Source of the DNA: Elsinoe ampelina
Taxonomy: Eukaryota
Assembly: GCA_010093995.1 (NCBI GenBank)
Contig: ML992504.1
Coordinates: 1-64,000 of the forward strand
DNA length: 64,000 nt
Reading direction: 5' to 3'
Under the pieces are notes generated by a model that saw only the letters and a list, made by a program, of their open reading frames with translations, had not been told where the DNA came from and made no database searches. The first letter of the stretch is position 1. Each line of letters starts with the position of its first letter. This document shows, one piece after another, positions 1 to 34,200 of this stretch. Position numbers and translations under genes: made by a program.

Positions 1-95
1 AACCCTAACCCTAACCCTAACCCTAACCCTAACCCTAACCCTAACCCTAACCCTAACCCTAACCCTAACCCTAACCCTAACCCTAACCCTAACCC
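1..95 (-). repeat. Telomeric repeat array (CCCTAA)n / (TTAGGG)n, about 16 units; chromosome end
   Basis: Perfect AACCCT units from base 1 to 95 at the very start of the window, in the C-rich orientation expected for a left chromosome end. Confidence 0.98.
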
Positions 96-97
96 AA

Positions 98-365
98 AGT
101 ATATACTCTAGTATATACTCTAGTATATAATCTAGTATACTAGCTAGTAGATATACTAGTATATACTCTAGCTTATACTTTAGCTTATACCTTCTCTTCG
201 ATTCTAATATACTAGCTAGTAGATACTCTAGTATATATCCTAGTATATATACTAGTATATATCTTAGTATATATCTTATTATATATCCTAGTATATATTC
301 TAGTATATACCTTAGTATATATTCTAGTATATACTTCCCTTTAAATTTTAGTATACTAGCTAGTA
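98..365. repeat. Telomere-adjacent degenerate 12-bp tandem repeat (AGTATATACTCT-like)
   Basis: agtatatactct agtatatactct agtatataatct agtatactagct... continues with substitutions to about 365. Confidence 0.8.
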
Positions 366-3300
366 GGTATAAGCGTAGATAAATCTAATAAAGTAGTATA
401 GTAATAGAATTATATCTTCGAGAATAGATTAGTAATCCTTATATAAGTAGCTTATAGTAAGGCCTCTATTCTTACTAAGAAGAGAGTACTCTATCTCTAG
501 AATTCTATCTTATTCTACTTCTAAGTTGTTTATCCTTATCTAATAAGTATATAGTATTATTTTGCCTATTATATACTTCTCTTTATTTGTGTTATACTTA
601 AGAGTTTCTTTTATGTCTTTATAGCCTTTTCTTTTATATCTCTCTAGCTTCTCTTTTATACCTTAGTAGCTTCTCTTTTACCTCTTTACTTCTTCTTTTC
701 TTTCTCTTTCTTCTTCTCTTCTTTCTTTCTCTTTATTTTCTTTTATAAGCTATTATCTCTATAGAGATATTTAGTCCTTTACTTACTAGTACCTCTTATC
801 TTTAAGACTTCTCTCTAACCTATTTAACTTACTATAGCTATAACCTACTAAGTAGCTAAGGTATAAGCCTAATAGGCTCTCTAATCTATCTATACTACTA
901 TAGTAGGTAGCTTTACTACTAACACTAACGATATAAACTAAGATATTTATAACATTCTATATGTAATTTAAGATATACTTAATACTACTAGCCTCGCTAT
1001 CTAGAGCTAGGGCAATTTCCTTATTACTAAGCTAATTTGTTTTAAGAATACTACTATAAAGGCCTATAAGTATAGTAAGAACACTAGAGTCTCTACTTCT
1101 ATTAACCTAGTCTTTATAGATAGTTATACCTTTTCTACTACTAGTAACGCCTAGAATTAAACTATTAGAGCTAGATCTCTTCTACTAGTAATAGCTATTA
1201 TTTATATATATCTAGGTAGTATAGTTATATATACTAATAACACCTAGTATACTATTCTTCTTGTCTTTTAGAAAACTAATAGTTATACTATCTATTCTAT
1301 CTTTAATACTAAGATAGCTTTAGATTCTAATACTATACCTACTCTTAGGAATATCTATTATAGTTAGTTATAGGGAGTATTACTTACCTTTAATACTGCC
1401 TAGAAGTTAGAACTAAGCTCTAATCTTACCTACGTTACTAGCGGCAGCTTTTAAGAATAATAATAGTACCTTATATAGATCTTTTACGCTCTACTTAACA
1501 TTACTAAGATTCTTATTATATATTAAGATACTTAAAGCTTGCTCGATGTAGCTAACACTTATAATTAGAAAGTGAATTATAGTATAGCTAGGTAAAGAAT
1601 ACTTATTCTCTAGAGAGAGAGAAAGAATATTTATAAATTAGATAGTATATATAGATAAGAAGCTAATAAAGGCAAAAGAGGCTAAGGAAAAATATAGTAG
1701 ATACTAATCCTAAGGAAAGATAGATATACTAATCCTAATAGAAGATAGATAAGAAAGAGCTATTACTACTCTAAGGTAAAGTCTACCTATAATAGAGTAA
1801 GTATATAATAAAAAGCTAAAGATTTAGTTATAGCCTACTCTAGAAACATAATTATAAAGTAGAGAGACTATATAACAGGCCTTAAACTATATTTAGGATG
1901 TAGTATTTAGAAAGGATACTAGTAAGACTATAAAGAATCTTTAAAATTAAGCTACTCTTAGTAGAAATTCTAACCTCTCGACTAAATAGCTTAAGAATAG
2001 AAATATTTTTCTTCTATCTCTAATTCTATAGTAAAAAGGCTATTTATTAATATTATTTTTGTTATATTCTATAGAATACATTAGATATAAACAATAATTA
2101 AAAAAAAGAAAGATTTCCCTAAGAGAAGTATAATTTCTTCTCTTACTACTAGGTATAATATACTTCTTAACCTATCTTTCTACCCTTTATATAACTATCT
2201 ATAGTAGTAGGAATATTAAGTCCTTTATACATACATATACTATATCTAACTACTATAGTGCTTTTCTTTGTTTACTTATCTAGTAAGTCTATAGTATTAT
2301 CTAAAATATAAATAAAGAGTAAGTAATTTATCTCTTATATCCTTACCTTCTATTTCTTTCTCTTTCTTTTACTTATATATACTTCTACTACTTATACTTA
2401 CCTTTATTTTAATTGTTAATCTTATTATATTAATACTAATAATAATACTAGTAGCTATCTTTAGAAGGAGTAATACCTAAGTTTAGAACTCTCCTAGTAA
2501 CCTAATAACCTAATAGACCTAGATTATACTTAACTATCTTATCTATCTTATTAATAGTAGTAGTAAGTGTTTCTAACTAGGAGATATTATAGTAATACTA
2601 ATAATAGGTATAGTCTATACTACTCTTTATATAAGTAATATAAATATATAATCTCTTATTAATATCTTTACCTTTATCTATGCCTATAGAGGAAGTAACT
2701 AATTATAGGCGCTCTTTTCTAGACAGAACTTGTTATTTATAAATAGTACTCTTAATAATTAGTATAGTTATCTACTAACATTAAGAACTTCTTTAGGTAG
2801 TACTATTACTATAGCTCTCTTAAATCGTAATTATATTCTAGCGTTATAGGTATATACTACTATTAGTAGAAGAGTTAATACTGTCCCTTATAACTGCTAT
2901 AGTTATAATAATAGCTATATAGATTAGTATATTACCTTCCTTAGACTTTTTAATAGAGAGTATATAAACTATCTCCTATCTAACTACTATAATAGCTATA
3001 CCTATACTAGCTAACCTTAAGCTGCCTCTACCTCTTAAGTTGCCTTTGCCTCTATAGTATAACCTAGCTAAGCGCCTATTTAAACTTAGAATAGGCCTAG
3101 CCCTAGGATAGTACTCTTTCCCTTAGCTAATTTTAACCTTTCTAGGAGGCCTTCTACCTTCTCTAGCTCTAGTACTACTAACTTCTAAACTACTCTCGAC
3201 TCTATAGCTACTAACGTCCTTAACCTAGGCTTTATAAATTTGTTTTCTAGTATAGTAGTTATAATAGATATATACTTTCTAGCCTTAGTATTACCCTAGA

Positions 3301-3694
3301 GGTTCGATGCTTAAGTTTCTAATTACTAAGTTATATTAAACAACTAAGTTACTAAACTTTAATAATAGGTTTAATAGGTAGCTATTAACGTAGCTAATAG
3401 TAGAGATATTACTCTTCTAGTTTTCTTTATGTTTAAGTAGAACAATAGGAGAAATAGTTAATATAGGTAAAGCAAAGGTAATAATTAGCCTAGTAGCTAG
3501 GCCTATTCCTTATTTATTATATATATTATGATTTATGTCCTTCTATTACATATAGTGTTTAATAATAGTAACACTATACTACTATTAAATACTATATCTT
3601 TTTAGCCTAGTAGTAGAATCTATTTTGTAATTCTCTCTCTTAATCTTATAGTAGTAGTTTAATTCTAGCTTAAGTTAATAAATTTAGAATAATT

Positions 3695-3945
3695 TTTTTA
3701 GTCCTTATTATAGATAGCTTTAGCATAATAGCTAGCTTTAGTATTATAGCTAGTTTTAACACTATAGACAGCTTTAATACTATAGACAGCTTTAACACTA
3801 TAGATAGCTTTAATACTATAGATAGCTTTAATATTATTATAGACAGCCCTAATACCCTAGCTAGCTCTAACACTATAGATAGCTTTAATATTATTATAGA
3901 TAGCTCTAATACTCTAGCTAGCTCTAACACTATAGCTAGCTTTAA
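3695..3945. repeat. 18-bp minisatellite (TATAGATAGCTTTAATAC-like)
   Basis: Repeated tatagacagctttaacac/tatagatagctttaatac units. They generate the KLSIVL-repeat 86-aa ORF. Confidence 0.85.
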
Positions 3946-3950
3946 TCTAA

Positions 3951-4060
3951 ATACTTACTAGTCTTTATATCTTATATGCTTACTAGTGTTTATATCTTAT
4001 ATACTTACTACTTTTTATATCTTATATACTTATTAGTTTTTATATCTTATATACTTATTA
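3951..4060. repeat. 25-bp minisatellite, about 4.4 copies
   Basis: Unit acttactagtctttatatcttatat starts at 3953, 3978, 4003, 4028 and 4053. Confidence 0.85.
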
Positions 4061-4169
4061 AGTTTTATAATAATAGAATCTTTATATTAGCTGCTTAATT
4101 TCTTATAATATATATATCTCTTTTCTCTATTCTTCTACTTCTCTTCTTTTATTCTACTCTACTATAACT

Positions 4170-4250
4170 TATACTACTATTAGACCTTATATTATACTAC
4201 TATTAGACCTTATATTATACTACTATTAGACTTTATATTATACTATAACT
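4170..4250. repeat. 23-bp minisatellite, 3+ copies
   Basis: Unit tatactactattagaccttatat starts at 4170, 4193 and 4216, with a partial copy at 4239. Confidence 0.85.
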
Positions 4251-7079
4251 TATATTACATTATACTACTATAAGCATTCTAATAGTTATATTTACTACTA
4301 CTTCTCTTCTCTGTCTTATTTAGCCTAAGAGTAATAAGATTACTATGCCTATTAAGATTAACTCTCTACTAACCTAGTATACTAATAACTAGATAGCTAA
4401 GCTTACTAACCTAGTCTAGCTTATTAAGAGTCTTATTTAGGATATAGTCTAGTATCTCTAGAGTATAAGGACTATCCTCTATAACTAAATTAACTAGCTT
4501 AATACTCTTTATAACTTTCTCTTTATTAACCCTAGCTATTCTTTCCCTACTATTAACACTAACTAGAATAGTCTTAATAAAGGTATATAGTACTATAGCT
4601 CTCTTATTAAGAACTTTAATAAGTTTATAGAGATTCTTAAGTAAATCTAGACTAAGTAAGTAGCCTTTTACTCTTTTCTACTTTCTCTCTCCCTTACTAA
4701 CTATTTCCTTAGACTTAAGGATATTTATAATACCTATTCTTCTATAGAAGATAGCTAGTCTATCTAGAACATGCACTAGAAGTATATAACTATTTCTAGT
4801 AGCTAGGACTCTCTTATTAAGTAGATTATTGTTATTCTTCTTTAGCTTACTAGTTAGAGAGAAGTTAGAATTAAGTTTGCCTTTTAAAGGCTAGAATATA
4901 AGTAATATTAGGAGAGGTAAGGAGGTATAGTAGATAGTAGAAGTTCTTTCTTTTGTTTTCTAGTATAATAAGGTAGCTAATAGCTTAATAGATAGATTAA
5001 GTAAATTAATGTAGCTTTATATAATATAAAGCTTTTCCTCTACAATTTTTATTCTTTATTAGATATTAAACTCTTCTCCTCTATATTCTCCTCTATATCC
5101 TCTTCTACTTTCTCCTCTATATCTTCCTTTATATTTTCCTCTACTTCCTCTATAAGGATAGTAGACCTCTCTACTCTATCTCTTTCTATCTTTACTATCT
5201 CTTCTCTACTTTCTATAATAGCTTTAGTAAAGTTATACTTTATATCTTATATATAATATCTATAGTTAATGTAAATATCCTCTCTAGAAGCTATCTATAC
5301 TATATTATAAAGATAAGAGATAAGCTATTAGATAGTAGCCTTCCTTGTCTCTTTATAACTATACTTCTCTTTATTCTATACTACTATCCTTCTACTCTTT
5401 CTCTTAATAGAATTAGAGTCTAATAATTTATTATTACTATCTATTCTCCTAATACTATCTAATAAAGGTTAGAGATTAGAATAGCTTTAAATCTTAGAGC
5501 TAGTAGTCTTCTCTCTCTTTCTTTTCTCTCTTACTTACTTCTTTTCTTACTCTTTTCTCTTGTTCTTTCTCTTTCTTTTCCCCTTCTCTAGCTAGCTTAG
5601 AACTGTCTCTTAACTACTCTCTCCTACCCTAAATATAATCTAATCTTTAGGAATGTCTATAGTAAACTTACCTTAGGTTAGTTATAAAGCTTTCTAAGTT
5701 AAAAACTCTCTTACTAGCTTTAAAGCTTAATAGATATTACTAGTAGTAACCTAGTCTTACCTACTTACCCTTATCCTAGTAGCCTTTCTAATTTAAGAAT
5801 CTATCCTCTTTATAATAGCCTCTCTCTATTTAAGAGTAGCTTTATCTAGAGATAGATCTACCTTTATATTTCTAGTAAGTGCCTTAAGGATAGACTTACT
5901 TAGATTCTCTACCTTTTCTACTTACTTACTTTATTTCTTAGGAGATAGTAACTCCCTCGGAATTTTCTATAGCTAATCTAGGCTCTAACTCTCTATAATA
6001 ATATTTCTAAAATGCTTCCTATCCCTCTATATAGATACTCTAAGTATAAGTAAAAGCTTGCTTAATTACTCTTATAGGAGACCTTAAAGTAGACTATCTA
6101 TACTTCTCTATACTTTCTTCTTCTTTGTCTTCTATACCTAATAGTGTATTATATACTTCTATATAAGTACTATATCTTTACTCGAGGTTAGAGTAGTATT
6201 AGTTAGCCTAGATATAATATCTCTAACAACTTAAGCCTTTATCTAACCCCTAGTATCTCTTTCTAGAATCTCCTATAGACTAGTACTATTAGAAGAAACC
6301 TCTTAAAGCTATACCTTAACCTATTCGAAGTTAAGGCTATTAATGTACTTTAGTGTTTTTAGCTATTCTTATTAGCTAGTAGCCTAGGTCTTAATAGAAT
6401 AGAATATATAAAGGTTCTTCTTATATCTTTAAGACTTGTTTCTATACTATTTTAGTTGTCCTCTATAGCTTTAAGCTATAGAGAGATTAAAATACAAAGT
6501 TTTAGAATAAAGAGTAAATAATTTAATCTCTAAATAATAGTTTATAACTATAGTATAGTAATAGTATTTACATTTATAAAGTTAAATAAATAGTTTAGAG
6601 TAGCTTTACTAAGCTTAGAGCGCTCTATTTCTACTAGTTTATCTCTATAAAGTGTCTATTATATATAGTAGTAGTTCTTCCTCTATAAATTATAGAAACT
6701 TTATTCTAAATATTTCTAACTTAATATAGTTTTTAAGCTATTATAACTACTTATATTTTGTTAATTCTAGACTTTTTATATTAATAACTAGAACTTAATT
6801 TAGATGTTCTTTAAACTAGTACTAATTTTAAGTTAGAAATTATTTAGGAATATAATTAGACTCTAGGTCTTAAAAAAAACTAGACTCTACTCTCTTAGAG
6901 TTATTTCCTTATATACAAATTTTTCTTACTTTAATTAGACTTAGCCTAGGTCTAATTTAGTATTCTAGGTAGGTTAAACTAAGTACTCTTTAATAACTTT
7001 ACTAGTTTATAATTAATTTAGATAGTTATTATCTTAATCTATTACTATTTAGAAGTTCTCTAACTTAGCTATCTTTTAG

Positions 7080-7294
7080 NNNNNNNNNNNNNNNNNNNNN
7101 NNNNNNNNNNNNNNNNNNNNNNNNNNNNNNNNNNNNNNNNNNNNNNNNNNNNNNNNNNNNNNNNNNNNNNNNNNNNNNNNNNNNNNNNNNNNNNNNNNNN
7201 NNNNNNNNNNNNNNNNNNNNNNNNNNNNNNNNNNNNNNNNNNNNNNNNNNNNNNNNNNNNNNNNNNNNNNNNNNNNNNNNNNNNNNNNNNNNNN
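7080..7294. other. Assembly gap (215 N)
   Basis: Run of n characters. Confidence 1.
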
Positions 7295-10200
7295 TTTATA
7301 TTTATATACTTATTAGTCTTTACCTTTATATACTTACTTATCTTTACCTTTATAGGCTTACTTATCTTTACCTTTATAGGCTTACTTCTTCTTCTAAGAT
7401 ATATATACTTTCTCTCTCTTCTTTAGAACTTTCTTTCTTTTATCTTACTCTATACTAACCTATAGCTATTTTATCTTCTACTTTATTATATCTAATTTAT
7501 ATATCTTAGCTTTTACTCCTATACTAGTACTACTATAGACTCTACTACTTACTTTATTAGTAGTTCTACTAGCTCTATCTAAGTTAAAGCTATTCTTAAT
7601 ATAGCTAAGTAGACACTTACTAGTTAGTCTATTAACTTTAATAAATGTAAGGTTTAGAATAAGCTAGTTTATCTACTTCTTACTCTCCTCTCTTCCTTAT
7701 AGTATACTAATCCTTAGTACTAGGTTATTACTAGTATTACTTAGATCTACCTTAGCTTAGCTATTACTCTCCTCTTCTAGAATAACTCTATCTAGGCTAT
7801 CTATACCTATATTAAAGAGCTAGCTAATATACTTTCCTTCTAGTCTAGCCTTAAATACTTCTAGGACTATTATAGACCTTTACTAGCTATACTAGACACT
7901 ATTTAGATTACTAATAGGCTATCTAACTATAGTCTAGCTTAGTACTAGGTCTAGGAGAATAGTAAGGTAGTTCTTATAATTACTACTCTTCTAGCTAGTA
8001 AGATGCCTTAGCCTAAGACTTAGGTTAAGAGAGAGAAGAAATTAGAGAAGAGAAGAAAATAGAAAAGAGAAGAGGTTAAAGAAGAAGTTAGTTATAGAAG
8101 AAGTTAGTTATAGAAGAGGTTAGATAAGGGAGAGGTTAGACAAGGTTAATAGCTTAATAGATATATTAGGTATATTAAGATAGTTTTAGTTATATAAAGC
8201 TTTTTCTTCTATAGAGTTCTTTTCTTTATTTTCTATTATAGTATAGTAGCTAGTAGCTTAATAGATAGATTAAGTAGATAATTAAGTAGACTAAGTAAAT
8301 TAATTAATATAGCTTTATTAATATTAAGCCTTACCTCTTCTATAAGAGAGCTTTAGACTAAACTTCTTCTCTATAAACTGTCTTTTTTATATAGAAACTA
8401 CTTTCTTCTTTATAAACTTATAGAAACTTTATTCTAAATATTACTAACCTAATACAGTTTTTAAACTATTATAACTCTATACTACTTAACATTTTAAACT
8501 TTGTTTAGAAGCTATTTAATAATAATTTAGACGCTCTTTAAACTAATACTAAAATTATAATAAAAATATTTTAGGAATATAATTCTACTCTAGGTCTAAA
8601 AAATAATTCTACTCTAGGTATAACTCTAACTCTTTTATTATACAAATTTAAGGTTTAGAAATTCTACTCTACCCTAGGTAGAATTTAGTATTCTAGTTAG
8701 ATAATAGATAAAGCGCTAAAGGTACCTTCTATAAGTTAGTTAAGACTCTAAGTTCTATAATCTATTAAATAGTTAAATATCTACCTTATTTAGCTTTATA
8801 CTATATAGCTATCTTCTAATATTAGAATAGATAGATTTAAGCCTAATAGTAGCTCTTTAAATAATATTAGTAACTAATTATATAGTATATTAGAGATACT
8901 TCTCTTATTAGTTTACTAAGCTACTTCTCTTAAATAGATATTATATATTACTATTCTATAACTAATTATACTATTCTAACTAATAAAACTAACCTATATA
9001 ATTCTATTTAGCTATAGAGGCTTCTATAATCTATAACTCTTTCTCTCTCCTATTTATTTTTTTCTACTAGACTTTCTTAATAAGATATATCTCTTCTTTA
9101 GCTATTATAACTTCTTCTTTCTCTTTTCTATAATTAATATACTTCTACTTACTTTCCTATAGTACTATAAAATACTTTTAATATTCTTCTAATTTAAAGA
9201 AAGTCTATACCTATATACTATACTAATACTTAAGTATATCTCTATTCTACTTCTACTTATATATCTTATAGTAATACTTACTAATTTAATTCTAATTAGT
9301 ACTTAAATTCTTATACTTATCTTTCTTATATATAAATACTTAGAGTAGTATACTTAGATATAGAAATACTAGTCCTAGTAGTTCTAGAAGTAAGATATTT
9401 CTTAGGCCTACTACTTTATACTATAAATATTTCTATAGTATTTTTTTTCTATTTATACTAGTACTAACGTAATACTACTTTAGATAGTATACTAATCCTC
9501 GAATAGCTATTTTATATATAGTATAAATAACTACTTTAAATTATACTTTATAATAGAGAATCTCGTAAGTATTTTTAAGTATAAGAGATACTATATAATA
9601 TTCTATTTTTACTACTATTTACTCTTTTCCCTAGATAATTTAGATAATTAACTAGTATAGAAGTATAGCTATTAATAAAGTAATATAGGCCTTTCTATAT
9701 ATATCTTTTTACCTTTCTATATATCTCTATTTATTTTTTATATATATTATATATAAAACTACTACGGACCTATATATATCTCTATTAGTTAATTAGATAG
9801 AGGTAATTTATCTACTTTTACTTTTTACTCTTTTATTCTTTTTACCTACCTTACTTCTATACTATTTTCTAATATACTAATAGCCTATTACTCTCTTCTA
9901 AACTACTCTTTATATATATAATAATAGCTAGAAAATCGTTTACTTTTTTAGCTAAAAAAGCTAATTCTATATAGTTCTACTCTTTATTATCTTCTCTAAG
10001 CTATCTAGATAGAGATATTATTCTTTACTAGTAAGATTCTTCTACTATATAAGAATAGAATAATCTTCTCTATTAAGCTAAATCTAGTAATCTATAAGTA
10101 TAATTAGAACTTATAACCTCTACTATTATTAAAACTAAACTCTAACGCTATTACTATTAAGACTAGCTAGATTATACCTTACTAAACTATCTCTAAGCTT

Positions 10201-11904
10201 TAGGTACTAATCTTACTTATATAGATACTACTACTTATATACTAAACAAATTAGCTAATACTATAGAGTAAGCTTCTATTATATCTACTCTTATCTAGTA
10301 GTATATCTAACTTTACTAATTATAGGAGATATATAATAATCTAGCTCTTTATTCTACTAAGTCTTTTCTTACTAATCTTAACTAGAACGCTCTTATAAAG
10401 ATTAATATTATTATTAGTACTTCTACCTAGGCTAATAAGTAGTAGAGTATTACTATTATTAAAGAGGCTTAGGGGTAAGACTAGTTTATAGAAATTCTAT
10501 TAGATCTTCTACTTAATAACTTATCTAATTCTATAAAGCTATCTAAGCGTTTATTAATTTAAATCGCTACTAACTACTATAAAGGTATTTCCTAGGCTAA
10601 TACTATATCTACTTAGTAGAGTTAGATATAGGCTAGATACTATTCTACTAGGTAATCTAACTAATCTAAACGTCCTTACTTAATCTCTTATATCTTACTA
10701 GAAGATATAGCCTTTCTTAATAAGTATTATAACGAATAGTATAGTTAAAGAATAGTAGAATTATTCTTCTTAGAGGTATAAGAAGATTAACTATAGCTCT
10801 TTCTACTATCGACTATAGCTAGTTAGGGAGACTCTCCCTAGTATAGATAAGAAAAGGTTAAGCTAGCTTATAAATATAAATATAGTATAATCGATAGGTA
10901 GTTTAAGAGAAGTATAATAAGAACAAATAGTATAAATACTATAGGAGATAACTCTAATACTAGAGTATAAGAGAAGAGCTAGTTATTAGCTAATAGTAAG
11001 TATTGCTTAAAATAAGTAGGGAAGTAGCTTATTTATAAGCCTATAATAGTAAAGACTATACCTATCTTATCTCTCTTAAGACTTATACCTTCTCTAACCT
11101 TATTCTATTAAGTATCTCTATATAGCGCCTTTAATGTTATAGCTATATTTTAACGAGTTTTTAATAAAGTATAAGCCTTTCTACTTAATAGGAATAAAGA
11201 AGTAGCTCTAGGTTATAATAGATACTATTCTAGCTACTATATATACTTTATAGAGATAGCTTATTATTATAAAGATACTTTCTTCTCTCTTCTTAAGAGA
11301 GTATATAGTATAGATTAGTATATATTACTAACGTAGCTTAATATAGAATAGAATAATAGTTTATAAGATAAGTAAGTAGTATCTTCGATAGTAGCTCTAG
11401 TATATAGAAGATAATAATAACTATACCTAAAGACTATCTTTATTAATTTAGATAAAGATAAGAATCCTACTAAAGATAAGAATTAATCGAGTAGAGTATA
11501 ATAAGGTTAAGCTTACTATTATTTATTAGTAGTCTAGAGATTCTCTATACTTAACCTCTATTCTTAGACCTTAGAGTTAGTTAATATAAAATATAGAGTT
11601 ATATTATTCTTCTTCTAATAGCTCTTAAATATTATATATAATATATAGGAGTAAAGCATATTTAAATATAGCTTAAAGTATAGTAATTAAGCGCGTTATT
11701 ATATATGTTCTTAAAGTTAGATTCTACTACTTAGATTCTACTTAAAAAAGCTAAATTCTTAGCTACACTAAACTCGTTTTAGCTCCGATTCTAGTAGCCT
11801 CTAAGGTCTTATCTTAGTTAGGCTACGATACTAGAATTACGTAACTAATCTAAACTAGATCCTAACTAAATCTAGTTCGTATCTATCTTATATTAGGCCT
11901 ATAC

Positions 11905-12045
11905 TATCCCTCTTATAGCTTAATATAGATACGACTTAAAACTATCTTCTAGTTTGATATAGATATATAATAAAATTATTTTATAGTCTAACGTAGATAC
12001 GTAATAAAACTATTTTATAGTTCGATATAGATATATACTAAAATC
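11905..12045. repeat. 34-bp tandem repeat, 3 full copies plus partial flanks
   Basis: taaaactattttatagttcgatatagatatatac-like units at 11937, 11971 and 12005. Copies differ mostly by C/T and G/A transitions. Confidence 0.8.
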
Positions 12046-12547
12046 TTTCGTTAGGCTTCTAGTAGACATCTAGCTATAAGCTTAACTAACTAAGGATCTT
12101 AGCTACGTATAGCTCGGCACGGGGGTAGAGAGTGTTAGCTCGAGCTAAACTCGTCAGAGAGGAGAAACAGGTCGTCGTAGGAAGGAACTATAATTGTTAG
12201 TGTCGGAAGAGTCGAAGATAAGCCTACTTTAGTAGTCGCGATGTGCGAGCTGGATCGCTGTATGCGAGCTAGAGTACATCAGCGAGATGGCAAGGGGCGT
12301 GCGATGAAGGAGGCCACTACGCGGGACAGGGGCTAACGTGCGAGATAGACAAAGGCGTAGGAGATGAACGATGGCGTGCGAGACGGACAAAGGCGTTCAA
12401 GATGGGACAGCAGGGCTCAGGAGCTGACTGACAGGAAAGGTCATTATTGGTAGATGTAGATGAACGAGCAACTGCATTTCATTGGTAGGTAAGCTTACCT
12501 CGCTATTTATTCTGAGTACATGCTCTCGCGATCGCGTGACGACCATT

Positions 12548-14119
12548 TTACCAGGGCGTTGGCTGTGGAAGTGTTGCCATCGGTGCTGTACACTTGTCGG
12601 CGAGCGCAGCCTTTGCTTCAGTGCTGTTGCTTGGAACGCAGTCGGTACCAAGGCCTCCCTTGATATTGTCGCAGATGATTACAGCTTTGTTGGTGGTTGT
12701 GCTGTTGCCGCATGGGCTGGTGACGGTAAAGTTCTTGAAGGTGATGTTCTCACAGACAGCATTGGGGTTGGAGCTGCACGTCAATTTGGCCACGGCGCGA
12801 CCGTATTTGCCGCTGGTGGTGCCTGAGAAGTTCTCGAACAAGACGTTGGTCACATTGACTTGCGATGGGTATGCAGCGCAGGTGGTAGCATTGATCTGAA
12901 GCAAGTCAGCCAGGTCAAGCCGGGGGAAGGAAGAACTTACGTTGAAGTAGCAAGAGTCCAGGAAGGCAGCGTACTCGTTGTTCGCATTCCAGAAGTTCCG
13001 GAAGGTCACGTTGTTGATGTAACCGTATCCGACATTGGGACCCGCCCATGACTTTAGGCGGGCGCCGTGCTGACCGTTGAGCAGCCACACATTCTCGATG
13101 AGCACATCCTCGATGATTGACTTCTCGCCCGCGTATTGGCCAATGGATCCCATGGACTGACCGTGGGTGCCGTTGCAGTACATTGTGTTGACGTGCACAC
13201 CAGTAGCGTTAGATTTGGGACTGAAGCAATCATCACCGATGTTCACCCAGGCACGCTCGACGGTGAGGTCCTTGATGTTGAGCGAATCGAAGAAATCGGT
13301 GTTCTTGGGAAGAGCGGTGGCGTTGTTCGATTCTGCGGTGACGACAATATCCTTATAGGAGATACCAGTGGCTATGCAGAGTTAGCAGGGATACAGAACA
13401 GTGATACGTCCAAACGTACAGGTGACGATGAAGTTCGTCCAGCACGGCGAGTCCTTGAAGTGGATACCTTCGATGCTGAGATCGGTGGCGTTCTGTGCAT
13501 AGAACAGAATGGGTCGCAGATACGCATTGGTAGGATCCAGAATCTCGAGCCCGGAAAACTCGTTCCACCACCTTTGTCCGTTGCCATTGAGGGTGCCAGT
13601 ACCATAGATTTTGATATTCTTGCCTCCGAATCGCCAGAACATGATGGAGTTCTGGAACGGATGTCTAAAGGCAACCTTCTGCCAGTAGGCAGTATCGTTG
13701 GTGAACTTGATCTCACCATCCAAGTGGATCTGAACATCATTCAAGAACGTAAGATCGAGTGGCTGTCCGATCATAAAGGTCTGGCCAGCAGGGAGGTACA
13801 AGGTGCCTCCATTGTTCGCAGCGCGGATACCAGCCTCGAAAGCAGCCGCAACGTCGTCAGTGTCGTTTGCCGAGGCGCGGAGAGTCACGACATGTCGTGG
13901 TGGTGAAGGAGGTGGAGATCCAGGGCCGCCAAGATACCCGGGAGGTCCTCCAGATGGGCCGGGATTCGCAGGTGCACAGCCAGTGCCGGGGACGGTGGGC
14001 GGCGTGGGAGGCTTGTAAGGATGCTTCTTCCTGAACTCTTCGACAGAGGCAGGGACGCCCTCAGGCAGGGCGGTCGCGGCCGCAGTCACGGCGAGAGCGA
14101 CAAGGCTCAGGAACTTCAT
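12548..14119 (-). CDS. pgxB: GH28 exo-polygalacturonase (PgxB-like), secreted; introns about 13372-13419 and 12896-12940
   Basis: Signal peptide MKFLSLVALAVTAAATA (ATG 14119). GH28 motifs KNTD, GDDC, GTHG and RLK, plus SMGSIGQY and WAGPNVGYG segments typical of fungal exo-PG B. GT-AG introns restore the frame. Confidence 0.88.
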
Positions 14120-14385
14120 CTTGGCTGCTCGATGGATGCTTCTGCAGGTCTTGGAAATGTCTTGTCCAAACACAAGCCTCCATGGCGGACGATCCAGGAT
14201 CCAAATACTCGCCGACAAGCATCTTGGCGAGTGCTTGACAATCCTTGCATTCCGCTTGCTCGGAGGAAATCAAACAAGAAATGGCAGGTGAGCGACAGGA
14301 ACCAGGTAGCCAAGCGCGAACAAGCTCATGGACGAGTTTCTCCAGGGCCTGGATCGTCCTCGGTGGCGGAGCAGTGCGATGCGGG

Positions 14386-14392
14386 TTGGTGG
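14386..14392 (-). promoter_or_regulatory. Candidate galacturonic-acid-responsive element (GARE core CCNCCAA) upstream of the GH28 gene
   Basis: ttggtgg on + reads CCACCAA on -, about 270 bp upstream of the ATG. Short motif, could be chance. Confidence 0.35.
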
Positions 14393-14997
14393 CAAGTTCT
14401 TCCAGGGTGACTTGGCAGAACTATCTGTGGAAGAAGAGGAGATGGGCAATTTGAAGCCAGAATATTCCGCCTATCAGCTTCATGAGGGAACACGAAGAGG
14501 TTTGTGGGGATCAATTGCGGGGGCGAAAGAGGAGATTGGACTCGTCAAAGATTCTCCGCCACCTCCCGGACTGCTGCTCTAAAGTCGGAATTTCATGGAC
14601 GAGATTGACAGAGCGGAACAAGAAGGACAGAGGCGGTAGCTGTCGGAGTTGATATATATCGATCGCAATTTCATGAAGAGACGTTCAGCCCCAGGATAGG
14701 GCCAACATATTCTGCTCTAAGCCCTGGAGTCAATCCGGAAGATGAACAGTCAGGGTTGAGGCCCTTGAGGGCAAACTCATGGGGCAGCCTTCCCCAGACT
14801 CTGTGCGTGCGATACTGTACCATGGCTCAGTCTTGTCACTGCGGCGAGGACAACTGCGGCGCCGTAGAGGCTGTGCATGAGTCACAGCGACGTGAGCAAT
14901 TGTCGCAACCAAATCAAACCACGATGATACGCCTGTTGAAGATCACTTAACACATTGATATCAACGACACCGATTCCGACAACGCAAAAACACCACC

Positions 14998-15819
14998 ATG
15001 CAAGGACAACCAGTTCTCGAAATGGCCAGCACGCCGACGGCCCTCGCGGACCGCATGAAACACTATGAAGCGAATTACGAGTACACACTATCAGCAGGGA
15101 CGCCAACTATCCTTCGCTTGGACGGACATACCTTCTCGAAATTCACGAGCCACTTCTGCCGTCCGTTTGATCAGCGGATTCATGATGCCATGATAGCCAC
15201 GTGTGATGACCTGCTGCGCTACTTCCCTCAGGCCACCGTTGCCTATACCTTCTCGGACGAGATAACACTTGTGTTCCCTCACGGTACCCAGAGTTACAAG
15301 GAGCGGGTCCAGAAGCTCGCGAGTCTTGCATCTAGCTATTGCTCGGTGCGATTCAATTCTCATCTTGCTTCCTGCCTATCGTCCAACCCTGAGCCGCGCC
15401 CAGCAGAGACTGCACTCGGACGCATCGGTACTGCTCACTTTGATGCACGTTTCTACACCGTACCGACTGTCGAAGAAGCACTCAACTGTCTCTTGTGGCG
15501 ATGTCGGCATGATGCGGTCCGCAATTCCGTTGGTGCCTTCGCTCGTACGCTCTATACAACCAGAGAGCTGCACGGAAAGTCGACTCAAGAAGTTTTGAAC
15601 ATGCTGAGGACGGAGAAGGGCCTAGTCTTCGAAGACTCAGTCCCCCGATGGGCGGTTGAAGGCTGCCTGCTCAAAAGACAGCAGGTCGAACAAGAATGTA
15701 TCAATCACAAGACGGGTGCGAAAGAAATATCGACAAGAACAGCCATCGGGGTGGAAGAACGGGGTGTGAGGGATTTCACCCCAGAAAATCTCAAGCTGGT
15801 CACGGACAAGTTCTGGTAG
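14998..15819 (+). CDS. Thg1-like protein (TLP), tRNA(His) guanylyltransferase / 3'-5' nucleotidyltransferase family, intronless
   Basis: DRMKHYE N-terminus, ILRLDGHTFSKFT, RPFD, AYTFSDEITLVF (catalytic D and DE), QKLASLASS, FDAR, WR..DAVRNS and LHGKS are all Thg1/TLP motifs. Confidence 0.9.
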   Translation: MQGQPVLEMASTPTALADRMKHYEANYEYTLSAGTPTILRLDGHTFSKFTSHFCRPFDQRIHDAMIATCDDLLRYFPQATVAYTFSDEITLVFPHGTQSYKERVQKLASLASSYCSVRFNSHLASCLSSNPEPRPAETALGRIGTAHFDARFYTVPTVEEALNCLLWRCRHDAVRNSVGAFARTLYTTRELHGKSTQEVLNMLRTEKGLVFEDSVPRWAVEGCLLKRQQVEQECINHKTGAKEISTRTAIGVEERGVRDFTPENLKLVTDKFW

Positions 15820-15885
15820 AAAACGACGCTCAAGCGGGGAGGATAAAATCCAGTGCAAGGACAAAACTCAAAACTCCAAAGTCGG

Positions 15886-16034
15886 TCCTCCAATCTATTC
15901 AGTCCCACTTCAACATGCATTGCGCCGCGTCCAGATGCCCAGGGATACGGCGCTAAAGCAGGTGTTCATCTGTTCCTGAGCCCGGAGAACACCCCATGGA
16001 GACCGGAGCCGGCAATCGCATCCGAAGCGGCTAA
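15886..16034 (+). promoter_or_regulatory. Candidate GARE (TCCTCCAAT, 15886-15894) and XlnR/Xyr1 site (GGCTAA, 16029-16034) upstream of the GH6 gene
   Basis: Exact matches to the known consensus motifs 330-480 bp upstream of ATG 16366. Short motifs. Confidence 0.35.
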
Positions 16035-16365
16035 TGTCACAACACCTCTGCCAACCACATTGTCGCTCAACTCCCTAAGCATGGATGAGCACATTCATTT
16101 CGGCTGCTCGGAACAATCGCAAGGTACTCCTTCTGGCTTTCGGAGTCAACAATGTGTCCACCTTGGGAGGTTGCAGGTCAGATGAGACCCGCCACTTGTT
16201 CACAGGCTCATCTGATGTTCAAATTGCGTACCGACAAGGCATGTCGACGAGAGATGAGCTTGTCCAAGGCCAAGATGTCTTGTATAAAGCTTTGAGCCTC
16301 TCTCACCCCGTGTCTCATCAGCAGTTTCAGCTTTACCATCTCCAGCAGACCCGACGATCGACATC

Positions 16366-17809
16366 ATGAAGTACGCTGTCGCATCCGCTGCGCTCTTTGC
16401 CGCTGGCGCCACTGCCATTCCCGTGTACGGCCAATGTGGTGGAATGGGTTGGACCGGAACTGGAACATGCGACTCTGGCACCGTCTGCAACAAGATCAAC
16501 GACTGTGAGTATAAATTGACCTGCTCGAAATCTCTGCTGACAACCATTCAAAGACTACTCCCAATGCCTGCCAGGCTCCGCATCAACCACTTTGGCCACG
16601 ACCACGCGTGCGACCACTACTGGTGGTGCCACCACTACTCGTGCCACGACGACAGCCGCTGCAACGACCACTCGTTCTGCTAGCCCGACCACCTCAGGCG
16701 GATCTGCAACCACCTCCGCGCCCTCATCATCAAGTGGGAATATCTTCCTTGGCAAGCAGTACTATGCCAACCCGTACTATGCATCCGAGGTCAACAACCT
16801 TGCCATTCCATCTCTTCCGGCATCCCTGAAGCCAGCGGCTTCTGCTGCGGCCAAGGTCGGCTCTTTCGTGTGGCTCGATACTCTCGCAAAGGTTCCCACC
16901 ATGGACACCTACCTCGCCGACATTCAGAAACAGAGGGCAGCTGGAGCCGACGTTATTGGTCAATTCGTCGTCTACGATCTTCCCAACAGAGACTGCAACG
17001 CCCTTGCCTCCAACGGCGAGTACCTTGTCGCCAACGGAGGTCTCCAGAAGTACCTTGCTTACGTCGACACCATCGTCGCCATTGTCAAGAAGTATCCCAC
17101 TGTCCCCATCGCTCTCGTCATTGAGCCTGACAGTCTCGCCAACTTGGTCACCAACCTCGGAACACCCAAGTGCGCCGAAGCCCAGCAGGCATACATTACC
17201 GGTGTCGAGTACGCAGTCAAGAACTTGGACTTGCCCAATGTCGCTCAGTACATCGATGCTGGACACGCCGGCTGGCTTGGTTGGCCTGCTAATCTCCAAG
17301 GTGCCGCCGATATCTTCACCAGCATCTGGACTGGTGCCGGAAAGCCAAAGTCCCTTCGCGGTCTTGCTACCAACGTAGCCAACTACAACGCCTTTGACAT
17401 CTCCACTCCTCCACCCTACACCTCGCCAAACCCCAACTACGACGAGAAGCTGTACATCAATGCTCTCTACCCTCTCCTCAAGGCCAAAGGCTGGGATGCT
17501 CGCTTCATTGTTGACCAGGGTCGCTCAGGCGCTCAGCCCACCGGCCAACAAGCCTGGGGTGATTGGTGCAATGCTATCGGCACAGGCTTCGGTCCAAGAC
17601 CAAGCACAAACACTGGTGATGCCCTTGTCGACTCCTTCGTCTGGGTCAAGCCAGGTGGTGAATCTGATGGAACCTCCAATACCACCGCCGTTCGCTATGA
17701 TGGCTTCTGCGGAAAGGCTGCCGCCCTCAAGCCTGCTCCTGAGGCTGGAACCTGGTTCCAAGCATACTTCCAGCAGCTCCTCCAGAACGCAAACCCCAAG
17801 TTGGCATAG
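16366..17809 (+). CDS. cbh2: Cellobiohydrolase II (CBM1 - Thr-rich linker - GH6), secreted; intron 16505-16553
   Basis: Signal peptide; CBM1 [31 protein letters not shown] after splicing; GH6 motifs VVYDLPNRDC, IEPDSLANLVTN, DAGHAGWLGW, WGDWCN and WVKPGGESDG. Confidence 0.96.
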
Positions 17810-18265
17810 AAAGTTCGAAGCAAGAGCGAGGTCTGACGGTCACTAAAGAAATACAGTTCACAAGTACATATTCTATCTATCGTTCAAATCTGAAGTCCAA
17901 GCTAGATCTGTCCCTCGTATTCGCTACGTTGATTCCTGACCATTACCGCTGCACACATGCAGTGTTATCCTGGATCTATGAGGTCGCTCGACCCGATCTA
18001 TCTGGTGACGGCTTGACAGATCTTCCCCGCCTCTGAGTGCCGATCCTTTGCTTCCCCAGGACGATTTGACTGTGCCGAAAGCCGCAAATCCGTGAAGCAT
18101 CCTCAACAAGCGTGGAAAAGGGAGCATCATCTCCAAATGGCGTGCAGGTCATCGTCGGGGAAGGGATCTGCCACAATATGATGCGTGGGCTACAAAAGTC
18201 GCCGCTGTGCAATCTCAAAGCATCTCTCCTCCTCCGGCCATGTCTACCCTCTCGATTACGACGAC

Positions 18266-19909
18266 ATGAAGCCTGGCGTATACCAGTTTTTGGTAGGCTG
18301 TTTCGCCGCCCTTGGTTCATTTCTCTTTGGCTATGACCTGGCTGTCATTGCGGAGGTCGTCGCCTCGGATGACTTCATCGAACGCTTTCTCCAGACCAGT
18401 GGTAGTACTCGCTCCGGAACTGTGGTCGCTCTCTTCACGGCGGGATGCTTCTTCGGGGCATTCGTCGCAGGATACACTCGCCGAATTGGTCGTAGGGGCG
18501 TTATCTTCTTCGCCTGCTGTATCTTCATCGTCGGAGGTGCCATTCAGACAGCTGCTGTGGTGATTGGTATGCTGTATGCTGGCAGATTCATCGCAGGACT
18601 TGGAGTCGGCCTGTTAACGATGATCATCCCCATCTTTCAAGCCGAAATATCACATCGAAGAATTCGTGGCAGAGTGACCTGTCTCCAGCAACTCTTCAAT
18701 GCTCTTGGCCAGATCTTCGCTGCATGGATTGGATACGGTTGCTACATGACTTGGACAGGGACTGGCAACAGTAGCGAATGGCGTATACCATTAGCGATGC
18801 AGATAGTGCCAGCATTCGTTCTAGGAGGCCTTATATACCTGTTTCCTGAAGTAAGCTCGCCTGCACTCGAACATGAGTGATGGTATATACTGACAGCTTC
18901 TGCGTATAGAGTCCGAGATGGCTTTGCGATAACGGGTATAGTAAGCAAGGGCTTCGAAACCTGGCGCTACTGCATTCTCAGGGCGACGAGACCGACCCTT
19001 ATGTCGTAGCTGAGTACGACTTGATCCACAATCAGATTGCCGACGAGCAATCGCAGAGCCGTATTACATTCCTCGACCTCTTCCGAGACTGGCCAAATGT
19101 CCGCCGGATGATTATTGTGACTATGATCCAAGGTAGTCGCGGCCGAGTCTCTGACAGTGACATTGCTGATATCATCTGCAGCTGAATGTCAAATGACCGG
19201 GATTTCGGCTCTACAATACTTCTCGCCACAAATCTACGCCCAGATTGGCATAGCAACCTCTCAGTCTCTGATGTTCAATGGGGTGAATGCTGTCATCGCT
19301 TTTGTCGGTACTGCGACCTGTATCCTGGTTGTCGATAAGATTGGGCGACGTCCACTAGAGATATGTGGAGCGGCCATCATGTGTGCCACCTTCATCGTCA
19401 ATGCCAACCTAATCAAGGCATTTCCTGCGTCCGATCCATCGAATGAAGCTCATTGGGCTTTCGTCGCTTTGACATGGCTCTTCAACTACGTCTTCTTCGT
19501 CACCTCTGGTCCTCTATCATGGGCCATCCCAGCAGAATTATTCGGGACAGGTGCATTACGGATGAAGGGTGTCAGCGTAGGTGCCATGACAAGTTTCGCC
19601 TTCAACACCATGATTGGACAGGTGACACCAGTCGCTGTCTCTGCCATAGGATGGCAGTATTACCTAGTCTTCATCATCTGCAATGCCACGAACGGTCTCT
19701 TCTTCTACGCATTCTTGCCGGAGACAAAGGGACTCAATCTCGAGGACATGGATGAACTGTTTAGGGAAAGCCCCACCTTCATACCCGGCTCAAAATGGGT
19801 CCCAAGCAGTCAGATCGATCAGGAAGCAGATGCTATCCGAAGAAGGAAAGGGTTCAAGGACGGCATGCCGATCGCCGAGCAGGTAGAGGACGTCGGAGCA
19901 CGTTTATAG
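18266..19909 (+). CDS. MFS sugar porter (Sugar_tr family); introns 18851-18909 and 19133-19181
   Basis: FLFGYDL, IGRR, GRFIAGLGVG, EISHRRIRG, WRIPLAMQ, PE|SPRWL across the intron, DKIGRRPL and PETKG motifs, with about 12 hydrophobic segments. Confidence 0.93.
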
Positions 19910-20494
19910 AACGATGTGTGCTCGCGTGGCGTAGGCTCTGACCAGACAGGCTTGCAGGGGGTGGCGCTTGAGCGGAATGGAATGTCTCTTCTTCCACCCT
20001 GGAGAGGATGATATTGAGTTACAGTGGTCGAAGGATCCCAGAAGAATTCTCCGATGAGCAGTGTAACGGGACCAAAGCCACTCTCATCCTCCTGACCATG
20101 TCCGCATGATCAGTCTCCCTCCGTCGCTTGTAATCGGTAGTGCAGAAAGAAGCCGAAATTGCAGACTCCGTGTCAAGATTTCCGCCGCCTTGGCGTTTGC
20201 TTGAAAAAGCGGGGATTGGTTGTGGGGACCCCACAGGGCCCTCAGAAGTGTCACCAAAGTGCCTGGACCTGAACATGCTTGTTTGCAATTATTCCGTCTC
20301 GCATACAACGCTAGATTGACCAGGTTGTGATTCCGTATTTCCCACAGCGAGACTCACGGTGCCATGGCCGATGGCTTGACTTCCGATTGTACACAGAGCA
20401 CTGACAAGGTACCCGCTTCCCTATTCAGGTCAATTCGCGAAGCACAGTGGCAGCCTCGATCACCTCTTGGTATGGAAAGGATGGTCCTGACATT

Positions 20495-32567: not shown

Positions 32568-33009
32568 TGGTGTAGGAATGGGTTGGCTGGCGATGAGGTG
32601 AGAACACAGCTGGGTGGTATAAAGGAATGAGAGAATAGCTTGTGCTGTAGTTTTCTAGTACGTACTTGATCTTTGAATAAAGCCACCCGCTAGTTACCAA
32701 ACCAACGACAGACGATCAAGGTTGTCCGGTCGAAATGCTGTGGATTCAAGAAAACATGAAAGGATGAAAAAAGAAGTCCGGCAGAGTGACGCGGTAGCAA
32801 AAACCGCCGTATTAGACGGTTTTAGCGTAAAAGACGCTAAATTGCATGGCGTCAGGGACCTGGGCGTGCTCCACCAATTTTGGCAGAGATTATCCCATCC
32901 GGCGGACTCCGATAGATATCTCTTGGCTCGATTCTGCCACCCTTTGCCACTTTTATGTCGTCGATATAGCTTGTAAAATTGTTAATCTTAGAGTCACTAA
33001 TTTGCTGTA

Positions 33010-34200
33010 ATGGATGACTATTACTACTATACTCTAATAATAGCCCTTATAGCTCTTATAGTTATAATAGCTACTTATAATAAAGAGAAGCGCTAGTAGT
33101 AACCTCTATATATTAATTAGCCTCGGTAGAGAGAGTAAGAGGCCCCCCCCTATCGATATAGAGACCTCTATCTATACTATTAATTTATATAGACAATTAA
33201 TTAATAGGAGAATTATAAGTTTAATAAGCTAGTATAGTAGGTATATACTCTTAATAGCTAAGCTATCGATAGCTAATAAGACTATACTAGCTTTACGAGA
33301 CTTAAGGTTATTAAACTAATTAATATATTAGATATCTAGTAGCTACGATTTACTAATAAGATTAAGCCTTTACTAGAGCTAGTACTCTATATAACTCTTT
33401 ACTAGCTAGCTTATCTAGGTTAGTAGTATATTTAATCTAACCTCTTTAGCTAGTATATTAGCTATCTATCGATAATTACTATAGAGGTAATTCTTTACCT
33501 TAAGTATAAATTTAGTAGCCTTCTTAATTAGTACTCTTAGCTAGATAACTACTACTAGCTTAAGTACTTTAGCTAGTGTATTAAGTAAGGTAGTAGGGAT
33601 AGAGTAATCTAGAGCTTCCTCGATAGTATCTTTAGAGGCTTCTAAAGGCTAATAATTAATTAAGAAGCCTATTACTCTAGCTATAAGAAGGAGTATAGTA
33701 TAAAGTATACTAGTATCTATATACTAGATAGTCTAATATCCTTATATACTAGTCTATACTAAGGAGCTATTAATAACTAGAGCTAGTTCTTAGTGTCTAA
33801 ATTACTATAGAGATTAGGTAAAATTAATAAGAGAGTTAAAGAAGATAATATACTATTCCTCCTTAGAGATACTACCTACTAGCTTAGTAAGAGCGTTATT
33901 AACTTATTACTCCCTTTAGCTAAGCTAGAGTCTTAACGCTAGAGGCTACTATATTTAACTAGAGAATAGCCTTAATCTATATAGAGGTAAAGTACGTCTT
34001 TAGACTTATAAGAAAGTACTAGACCTATATAGATTATAATAGAGACTTATCTATAGTACGCTAGCCTATAGATATATATTACTAAGTTTATATACTCTTA
34101 ACTAATCTTTATATAGTAACGAACGGAGGAAATTAAATATCTAAGCGCTTTATATACTCTCTACTAATAATAAGACAATATTTAAGACTTATACTAGATA
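33010..34200 (+). pseudogene. DDE_Tnp_4 (Harbinger-type) transposase relic
   Basis: Reversing C>T/G>A changes by eye gives LYRLAYP..LFGR, VIWGFLDG..RP..NQEAYYSG.KKEHG.KY....PDGL....GP..G..ND, LGDAAY, FNQRMASIRIEVEHVFG..KYW and LLTNL..GGNQISKRF. Stops are TAA/TAG at Gln/Trp positions, and there is at least one frameshift. Confidence 0.85.

Follow-up and report, generated by a model that had tools for sequence, protein, structure and literature searches.

The 64-kb stretch of DNA analysed here (64,000 nucleotides, called the window below) begins with telomere repeats and raises the question of what a Thg1-like protein (TLP), an RNA polymerase that works in the 3'-5' direction, is doing near the end of a chromosome that appears to belong to an ascomycete. 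The gene in question is the open reading frame (ORF) at 14998..15819 of the plus strand. A reading of the letters alone (the sequence-only reading) had described it as a bacterial-style TLP, possibly acquired horizontally and acting as a second reverse polymerase for the repair of RNA 5' ends, for example against ribotoxins. According to the present analysis, the protein looks like a catalytically competent TLP of eukaryotic lineage, most likely retained alongside canonical Thg1 as a second 3'-5' RNA polymerase, a reading that is given a probability of about 0.65. By analogy with characterised TLPs, its function would most likely be template-dependent 3'-5' repair of the 5' ends of tRNA or small RNAs outside mitochondria. 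Published work is cited by PMC number.

Gene, motifs and predicted fold

The ORF extends over 273 codons from ATG to TAG with no internal stops. Its product matches PF04446 (Thg1) with 120.6 bits (cut-off 29.2, E 5.3e-35), residues 18-156 corresponding to positions 2-130 of the 130-position profile. No match to PF14413 (Thg1C) was obtained at E <= 0.1 in the Pfam scan, and the NCBIfam scan of the protein matched no family. A profile search of all six frames revealed no other Thg1-family ORF in the 64-kb window. The intronless frame, the DRMK.YE start, RLDG, SDE and the DAVRNS segment had all been noted from the letters, and each was found in its place. In an alignment of 101 TLPs, K21 and E24 of the DRMKHYE motif are at least 90% conserved. 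RLDG, whose D42 takes the position of the first metal-binding carboxylate in the alignment to the Bacillus thuringiensis TLP (BtTLP, 4kgk), is present in 111/111 close relatives that retain the N-terminus.

An AlphaFold2 model built from 101 sequences had a mean predicted local distance difference test (pLDDT) score of 94.9 and a predicted template modelling (pTM) score of 0.90. All 32 of the PDB chains matched by Foldseek at E <= 0.001 were Thg1 or TLP chains, with 4kgm at the top (E 3.9e-17). As modelled, the protein has the polymerase-like palm fold of the solved Thg1 and TLP structures.

Active site

Between residues 15 and 94 the window protein aligns to 4kgk without a gap, and the roles of the BtTLP residues were taken from PMC3701042. 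The metal ligands D30 and D75 correspond to D42 and D87 of the window protein; E12, R28, S74, E76 and R131 correspond to E24, R40, S86, E88 and R151, and K43 to R55. The three carboxylates of the superfamily (D29, D76 and E77 in human THG1; D30, D75 and E76 in BtTLP) are thus present as D42, D87 and E88. The claim that the catalytic carboxylates are intact therefore stands, and R40, D42, G43, S86, D87, E88 and R151 are invariant in 101/101 aligned TLPs.

The residue set for 5'-activation and nucleotidyl transfer (E12, R28, K43, S74 and R131 in BtTLP) is also present, with Arg55 at the place of K43. In BtTLP, K43 positions ATP for the 5'-adenylylation, and the K43A replacement lowers only ATP-dependent activation while the GTP-dependent reaction is unaffected (PMC3701042). 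Arg occupies this position in 103/120 close relatives (best 120 of 570) and in 51/83 prokaryote TLPs, and Lys in 120/121 canonical Thg1 proteins; on these counts Arg is ordinary for TLPs. Since the metal-binding and nucleotide-binding residues are intact, the enzyme looks active.

Among solved structures, BtTLP gives both the closest sequence match (4kgk, E 2.6e-22) and the closest fold match (4kgm). The two proteins share the DRMK-YE start, RxDG, SDE, the active-site residues E12, R28, D30, S74, D75, E76 and R131 (BtTLP numbering, from PMC3701042) and a D-A-x-[KR]-N-S segment at the place of the canonical HINNLYN motif. They differ in that identity is only ~24-35%, Arg replaces the ATP-positioning Lys43, and the window protein carries ~30 extra C-terminal residues, predicted to form a beta-hairpin and a helix. 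It also branches with eukaryotic rather than prokaryotic TLPs.

TLP versus canonical Thg1

Other solved matches were Candida Thg1 (3wbz, E 5.2e-07), an archaeal TLP (5axk, E 1.4e-06) and human Thg1 (3otb, E 8.1e-06). Against a TLP profile the window protein scored 367.6 bits, the query being included in that profile; against a canonical fungal Thg1 profile it scored 40.8 bits, in the N-terminal domain only. A canonical fungal reference was picked out of metagenome contigs by its HINNLYNT motif. This reference has both Pfam domains (173 and 162 bits), and the canonical P0365 and P0485 score 162-168 bits for PF14413. At the cut-off, PF14413 was found in 0/24 full-length TLPs (the window protein and 23 others, including 7 prokaryotic) versus 2/2 canonical Thg1 proteins. 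The domain does not separate the two types cleanly in all Pfam releases, because one Atlas cluster of bacterial TLPs lists PF14413 on 96% of its members.

Neither the MANSKYEY-type start nor the HINNLYN motif occurs in the window protein, while canonical examples show both. In HINNLYN, it is the His that stacks on the anticodon of tRNA-His (PMC6471195). Without this motif the window protein lacks the stacking His; in the alignment to 3wbz the position is held by Ala173, within HDAVRNS. From its residues, the protein does not look capable of Thg1-type recognition of tRNA-His. In the careful tree described below, canonical proteins and TLPs are separated with support of 100/100, and the same split appeared in two quick trees. 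The Pfam result, the 4kgk match, the profile scores and this split all agree with the earlier identification of a TLP and not a canonical Thg1. A Thg1/TLP tree had been suggested along with that identification, and in it the window protein groups with TLPs and not with canonical fungal Thg1.

Compared with canonical Thg1 (yeast, Candida 3WBZ, human 3OTB), the window protein belongs to the same superfamily and has the palm fold and the three common carboxylates. It is, however, only 31% identical to the Thg1 of Elsinoe australis, and this in the N-terminal domain only; it has no Thg1C match and no HINNLYN, and is set apart by the 100/100 branch.

Presence of a canonical Thg1

A search for canonical Thg1 gave 3927 matches. 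The best 120 of these all have both Pfam domains and are mostly from Dothideomycetes of the Capnodiales type, Elsinoe australis among them. The genus of the closest TLP, that of Elsinoe fawcettii, therefore also has a canonical Thg1, which makes the status of a second enzyme likely. The TLP is thus likely kept beside a canonical tRNA-His guanylyltransferase, judging from a species of the same genus as the host of the closest TLP. The reading of the gene as a second reverse polymerase is upheld as likely in the same way. According to PMC5041481, most animals and fungi lost TLPs and retain one Thg1, in agreement with the earlier statement that ascomycetes normally rely on the canonical enzyme.

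RNA-derived assemblies

Seven public runs contain the stretch; for all of them the RNA label is a guess. From four of these runs (three studies), contigs were placed on 12000-20000. These contigs skip four stretches of 45-56 nt with GT..AG ends, namely 12896-12940 and 13372-13419 in the gene for a glycoside hydrolase of family GH28, 16505-16553 in that of family GH6, and 18837-18892 in the transporter gene. Because the genome sequence contains the stretches that the contigs skip, the contigs are most simply RNA-derived. Contigs of 4/4 runs cover parts of the TLP ORF, with no joints inside 14998-15819. This supports an intronless TLP gene that is present in RNA-derived assemblies.

One contig of run X1 (depth 6.1) has A for C at position 15743, the second base of codon 249, which changes Ala to Asp. 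The difference lies in the variable C-terminal stretch and is probably a strain difference.

Relatives and deep origin

A word-indexed search found 570 relatives, and the best 119 apart from the query were examined. They are 61-74% identical to the window protein and have PF04446 only. Named among them are 37: Elsinoe fawcettii (the closest, 74%), Biscogniauxia marginata and 35 others, which we take to be Pleosporales, Ascochyta having been checked. Elsinoe fawcettii was looked up as a member of Myriangiales, Biscogniauxia of Xylariales and Neofusicoccum of Botryosphaeriales; only four species were looked up in all. The ascomycete origin of the window, as given by the sequence-only reading, agrees with these nearest relatives and with the neighbouring genes, and it is on these two that it rests.

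An exhaustive search of 50%-identity representatives gave 4901 proteins at E <= 0.001. Wider holders were named from a profile of the nearest non-Dothideomycete representatives. In fungi they include five Mycena species, Favolaschia, Clonostachys (two), Dactylonectria, Thelonectria, Fusarium lateritium and Neofusicoccum parvum; protist holders are Willaertia, Acrasis, Planoprotostelium and Prymnesium, and giant-virus holders are Tupanvirus, Megavirus and Mimivirus. The closest relatives outside ascomycetes and Mycena include P0129, P0272, P0131, P0140 and P0281. Several representatives are long, with the TLP domain at one end: P0121 (857 aa), P0237 (832 aa), P0153 (693 aa), P0192 (568 aa) and P0148 (492 aa). 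They may be domain fusions or merged gene models.

A scan of prokaryotes with one genome per species, made with a 10-sequence alignment, confirmed 557 relatives, the best 80 of which are 29-42% identical to the window protein. The prokaryote identity of up to 42%, over the matched segment, compares with 43-48% for the nearest non-ascomycete relatives. The genome of Nannocystis punicea has two TLP-family genes (L025 and L083), the second in a 578-codon frame and 28% identical to the window protein.

In a FastTree of 229 rows, 0/78 prokaryote TLPs fell within the 146-row clade that holds the window protein. A careful tree was built from 46 rows x 265 columns, with support given as ultrafast bootstrap / Shimodaira-Hasegawa-like approximate likelihood ratio test (SH-aLRT). 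The rows of this set and of the 45-row set used below were chosen by hand from named and nearest sequences; a 91-row set was used for a quick tree only, and row P0173 (end branch 1.55) was removed after the first quick tree. Besides the canonical proteins, the 46-row tree separates the prokaryotes as one group (89/90) and joins the eukaryotes and giant viruses (81/77). Within it are a group of 19 fungal and unnamed sequences (96/98), an ascomycete group of 10 (99/97) and the pair of the window protein and Elsinoe fawcettii (100/97). In three maximum-likelihood trees, the window protein stands in a fungal group inside the eukaryote/giant-virus TLP clade, with prokaryote TLPs apart. Constraining ascomycete and prokaryote TLPs together cost 22.1 log-likelihood units (approximately unbiased (AU) test, p 0.036). 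The TLPs of Mimivirus, Megavirus and Tupanvirus resemble the window protein in belonging to the eukaryote-type clade and having PF04446 only; they differ in being 33-36% identical to it and not sister to the fungal group.

The composition of the gene is native, like that of its neighbours: the TLP ORF has a GC content of 0.535 and a GC content at third codon positions (GC3) of 0.588, and the eight neighbouring ORFs have GC3 of 0.50-0.62. The ORF shows no signature of repeat-induced point mutation (RIP), its TpA/ApT ratio being 0.63. From the trees, the origin of the gene would most likely be inheritance and/or exchange within eukaryotes and fungi, with no recent bacterial capture. Of the earlier description as bacterial-style and possibly horizontally acquired, the TLP type is kept and a bacterial source is not, given the trees, the AU test and the native composition.

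History within fungi

A second careful tree, with the same two kinds of support, was restricted to 45 named TLPs of fungi. The window protein and Elsinoe fawcettii nest in Pleosporales beside Ascochyta, Didymella, Boeremia, Stagonosporopsis and Macroventuria (99/96). Pleosporales appear as one clade in 0/200 bootstrap trees. Biscogniauxia (Xylariales) is placed among Pleosporales, and Neofusicoccum (Botryosphaeriales) among Hypocreales (98/98). A constraint of Pleosporales monophyly gave a log-likelihood difference of 16.8 and was not rejected (AU p 0.105). Two histories would account for this pattern: transfer between fungi, or an old paralogy followed by losses. In the same tree, P0029, labelled Curvularia kusanoi, is placed with Boeremia and Stagonosporopsis (Didymellaceae type, 98/75) and not with Alternaria and Pyrenophora; the cause may be another conflict of gene trees, contamination or a wrongly labelled record.

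Localisation and proposed function

Upstream of the ATG, 13 in-frame codons are open, followed by a stop, and the first 14 residues of the window protein contain 0 Arg and 0 Lys. No N-terminal targeting peptide is evident in the start context, the composition or the joint-free contig, and the earlier remark that a basic mitochondrial presequence is missing is thereby confirmed. These 13 open codons (14959-14997) read YQRHRFRQRKNTT and are strongly basic; they may be what is left of a leader such as relatives have, or a product of chance.

Such leaders are predicted in a minority of the close relatives. Among the 111 with an intact N-terminus, 29 carry 40 or more residues ahead of RMK, the extension being 40-120 residues long (P0015, P0021, P0025, P0026, P0034, P0039, P0048, P0074 and P0093 are among them). 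The first 30 residues of these long forms contain on average 3.9 Arg+Lys and 0.9 Asp+Glu, compared with 1.3 and 2.8 in the 82 short forms, and 16/29 long forms have at least 3 basic residues and no more than 1 acidic residue there. The start is similar in 9/29 (M-T/S-Q/R/H-x-R/H/W), and the internal Met at the short-form start is kept in 29/29. All long forms come from automatic gene prediction; provided that the models are real, two isoforms, one mitochondrial and one cytosolic, may be made in some Pleosporales.

The proposed mechanism follows that of TLPs characterised in B. thuringiensis, M. xanthus, archaea and Dictyostelium (TLP3 and TLP4). The 5'-monophosphate of an RNA lacking at least one 5' nucleotide would be activated using ATP or GTP. 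Nucleotides would then be added in the 3'-5' direction, each presumably selected because it forms a Watson-Crick pair with the opposite strand. Catalysis would depend on two Mg2+ ions bound by D42 and D87, with R40 and R151 positioned on the incoming nucleoside triphosphate by E88 and E24. The likely site of action is the cytosol or nucleus, because the window copy lacks a targeting peptide, and it would act there on tRNA or on other structured small RNAs.

Dictyostelium discoideum TLP4, compared here by description only, is a similar case: a eukaryotic TLP beside canonical Thg1 and without organelle targeting (PMC10275265 and PMC5041481). Templated addition at 5' ends, possibly on substrates other than tRNA, would be expected of both. 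TLP4 is cytoplasmic and critical for growth, and its natural substrate is not known according to PMC10275265. Unlike the essential TLP4, the fungal TLP is likely dispensable because of its patchy distribution, and the TLPs of named Amoebozoa and Heterolobosea are placed outside the fungal group. The mitochondrial tRNA 5'-editing enzymes of Dictyostelium (TLP3/TLP2) and Acanthamoeba share the TLP clade, and some fungal relatives of the window protein have basic extensions, but the window copy itself has no presequence.

Alternative explanations

Several points weigh against the reading of a competent, eukaryote-type second polymerase. The rejection of prokaryote affinity at p 0.036 is modest, the eukaryote and virus clade is supported by only 81/77, and the root of the TLP part shifted between two quick trees. 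The mechanism is transferred from distant relatives of ~24-35% identity, and the status of a second enzyme comes from Elsinoe australis, a congener of the nearest relative's host and another genome. The basic extension in 29/111 relatives means that the main site of the family elsewhere could be the mitochondrion. The RNA label of the runs is a guess, and the contigs give neither strand, transcript ends nor level; one X2 contig of 5004 letters spans the TLP, GH6 and transporter genes with introns removed, which suggests overlapping transcripts or a chimeric assembly.

The recent capture of a bacterial-type TLP, as originally proposed, would fit an intronless, subtelomeric gene whose best solved relatives (4kgk, 4kgm) are bacterial and whose prokaryote relatives come close in identity to the nearest non-ascomycete ones. 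The top PDB match, though, says nothing on origin, because the solved TLP structures are only bacterial and archaeal. The separate placement of prokaryote TLPs in the FastTree and in all three maximum-likelihood trees, the AU result, nearest named outgroups that are Mycena, protists and giant viruses, the dozens of fungal genera carrying the gene at 61-74% identity and the native composition make such a capture very improbable. It is equally hard to credit that the TLP is the sole Thg1-family enzyme and supplies G-1 to tRNA-His. Eukaryotes with TLPs and no Thg1 do exist (PMC5041481), several TLPs rescue yeast lacking THG1 (PMC10275265), and the window has no second ORF of the family, but a canonical Thg1 is found in Elsinoe australis and throughout the best 120 of 3927 matches, which are of Dothideomycete type, and the TLP has no anticodon-reading motif. 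Accessory genes near telomeres are often lost, and a decaying or silent relic without function might be expected next to a 12-kb block with the RIP signature. The window protein and that of Elsinoe also share departures from the commonest motifs (YTFSDEITL and WRCRHDAVRNS, 2/111 each). However, the frame is intact, every residue invariant in the 101 TLPs is kept, the model is confident, the ORF is free of RIP, and assemblies with spliced neighbouring genes from three studies cover it, so that a relic is scarcely to be expected.

Action in mitochondria, in the manner of Dictyostelium TLP3/TLP2, would mean repair of 5' mismatches in mitochondrial tRNA or G-1 addition to tRNA-His there. The basic extensions predicted in 29/111 relatives and the precedent of characterised eukaryotic TLPs that include mitochondrial editing enzymes (PMC10275265) speak for it. 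A literature search found only reviews and no report of mitochondrial tRNA 5' editing in Ascomycota. With the stop 13 codons upstream, a joint-free contig over the start (14628-15310), an N-terminus without a basic residue and long forms that are only automatic models, such action is unlikely for the window protein. Less doubtful, though still tentative, is that the copy of the Elsinoe lineage was transferred from a Pleosporales donor near Didymellaceae and that the family spreads among fungi as an accessory gene. The nesting in Pleosporales, which never form one clade in the 200 bootstrap trees, and the placement of Biscogniauxia and Neofusicoccum against taxonomy favour transfer. The best 120 of 3927 canonical matches share only Elsinoe with the genera of the TLP lists, and the place of the gene, second from the telomere, would fit as well. 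Against this, the AU test keeps the monophyly of Pleosporales (p 0.105), the long branch of the window and Elsinoe sequences (0.21 plus 0.22-0.33) can misplace them, and an old paralogy followed by many losses would produce the same pattern; the composition is native, the lists cover only the best 120 matches, so that absence from other orders does not follow from them, and the order was looked up for only four species. A wider version, rather speculative, is that an accessory eukaryote-type 3'-5' RNA polymerase moves between fungal lineages, forms two isoforms in some species (one with a leader of mitochondrial type) and provides a kind of 5'-end repair or editing new to Dikarya; the leaderless subtelomeric copy would then repair cytosolic tRNAs or small RNAs, for example after nuclease damage.

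Significance

The literature search found no work on TLPs of filamentous fungi or on Thg1 in Dothideomycetes. Databases hold a large conserved TLP group from Pleosporales and scattered fungi, and automatic names do not separate TLP from Thg1. The kind of enzyme is already known, the member is uncharacterised and no new mechanism is shown. The result points to a fungal group of repair-type TLPs, enzymes usually described as absent from fungi. The substrates of non-mitochondrial eukaryotic TLPs are a standing question in the field, and tractable fungi with a likely dispensable TLP would allow clean knock-outs and mapping of 5' ends.

Genomic setting

The features of the region are collected in Table 1. 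The subtelomeric location noted earlier is borne out by the telomere repeats at 3-98 and by the ~12 kb that follow at 22-28% GC. The first AT-rich block (1-12000) has a TpA/ApT ratio of 1.83 and a (CpA+TpG)/(ApC+GpT) ratio of 0.11. The TLP gene is the second gene inward, ~15 kb from the telomere repeat.

Table 1. Positions of the TLP gene, its motifs, its neighbours and the contigs placed over it in the window
Feature	Position	Strand	Remarks
Telomere repeat array, TTAGGG-type units	3..98	-	14 matches, 0 expected
AT-rich block with RIP dinucleotide signature, telomere to first genes	99..12000	.	GC 0.22-0.28
GH28 glycoside hydrolase, upstream neighbour	12285..14153	-	PF00295 on two exons; two short introns (joints 12895/12941, 13371/13420)
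Thg1-like protein, coding sequence	14998..15819	+	ORF, PF04446, joint-free contigs, AlphaFold2; 273 aa + stop, without introns
DRMKHYE, N-terminal TLP motif, residues 18-24	15049..15069	+	E24 aligns with BtTLP E12 (4kgk; PMC3701042)
RLDG, residues 40-43	15115..15126	+	R40 = BtTLP R28; D42 = BtTLP D30 / hTHG1 D29; invariant 101/101
SDE, residues 86-88	15253..15261	+	S86/D87/E88 = BtTLP S74/D75/E76; invariant 101/101
DAVRNS, residues 172-177	15511..15528	+	at the HINNLYN place of canonical Thg1 (alignment to Candida Thg1 3wbz)
GH6 glycoside hydrolase, downstream neighbour	16366..17809	+	PF01341 393 bits; one intron (joint 16504/16554); first-exon ORF from 16366
Contig-covered stretch around TLP	14628..16106	.	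assemblies with spliced forms of neighbouring genes
Run X1 pieces over TLP	14628-15310, 15383-16106		contigs
Run X2 pieces over TLP	15034-16504 and onward		contigs
Run X3 pieces over TLP	14657-15032, 15023-15458		contigs
Run X6 pieces over TLP	15185-15555, 15530-15723		contigs

Inward from the telomere, the genes follow in the order GH28 (on the minus strand), TLP, GH6, sugar transporter, CBM1 protein, metallo-beta-lactamase-fold protein, PEP-hydrolase-like protein and UPF0261 protein. No functional link of the TLP to any neighbouring gene is evident from this order. A second AT-rich block at 33000-36000 has strong RIP indices (GC 0.22-0.28, TpA/ApT 2.15, (CpA+TpG)/(ApC+GpT) 0.09). The GH28, GH6, sugar transporter and CBM1 genes form a plant-cell-wall gene cluster adjoining the telomere at 12285-20000.

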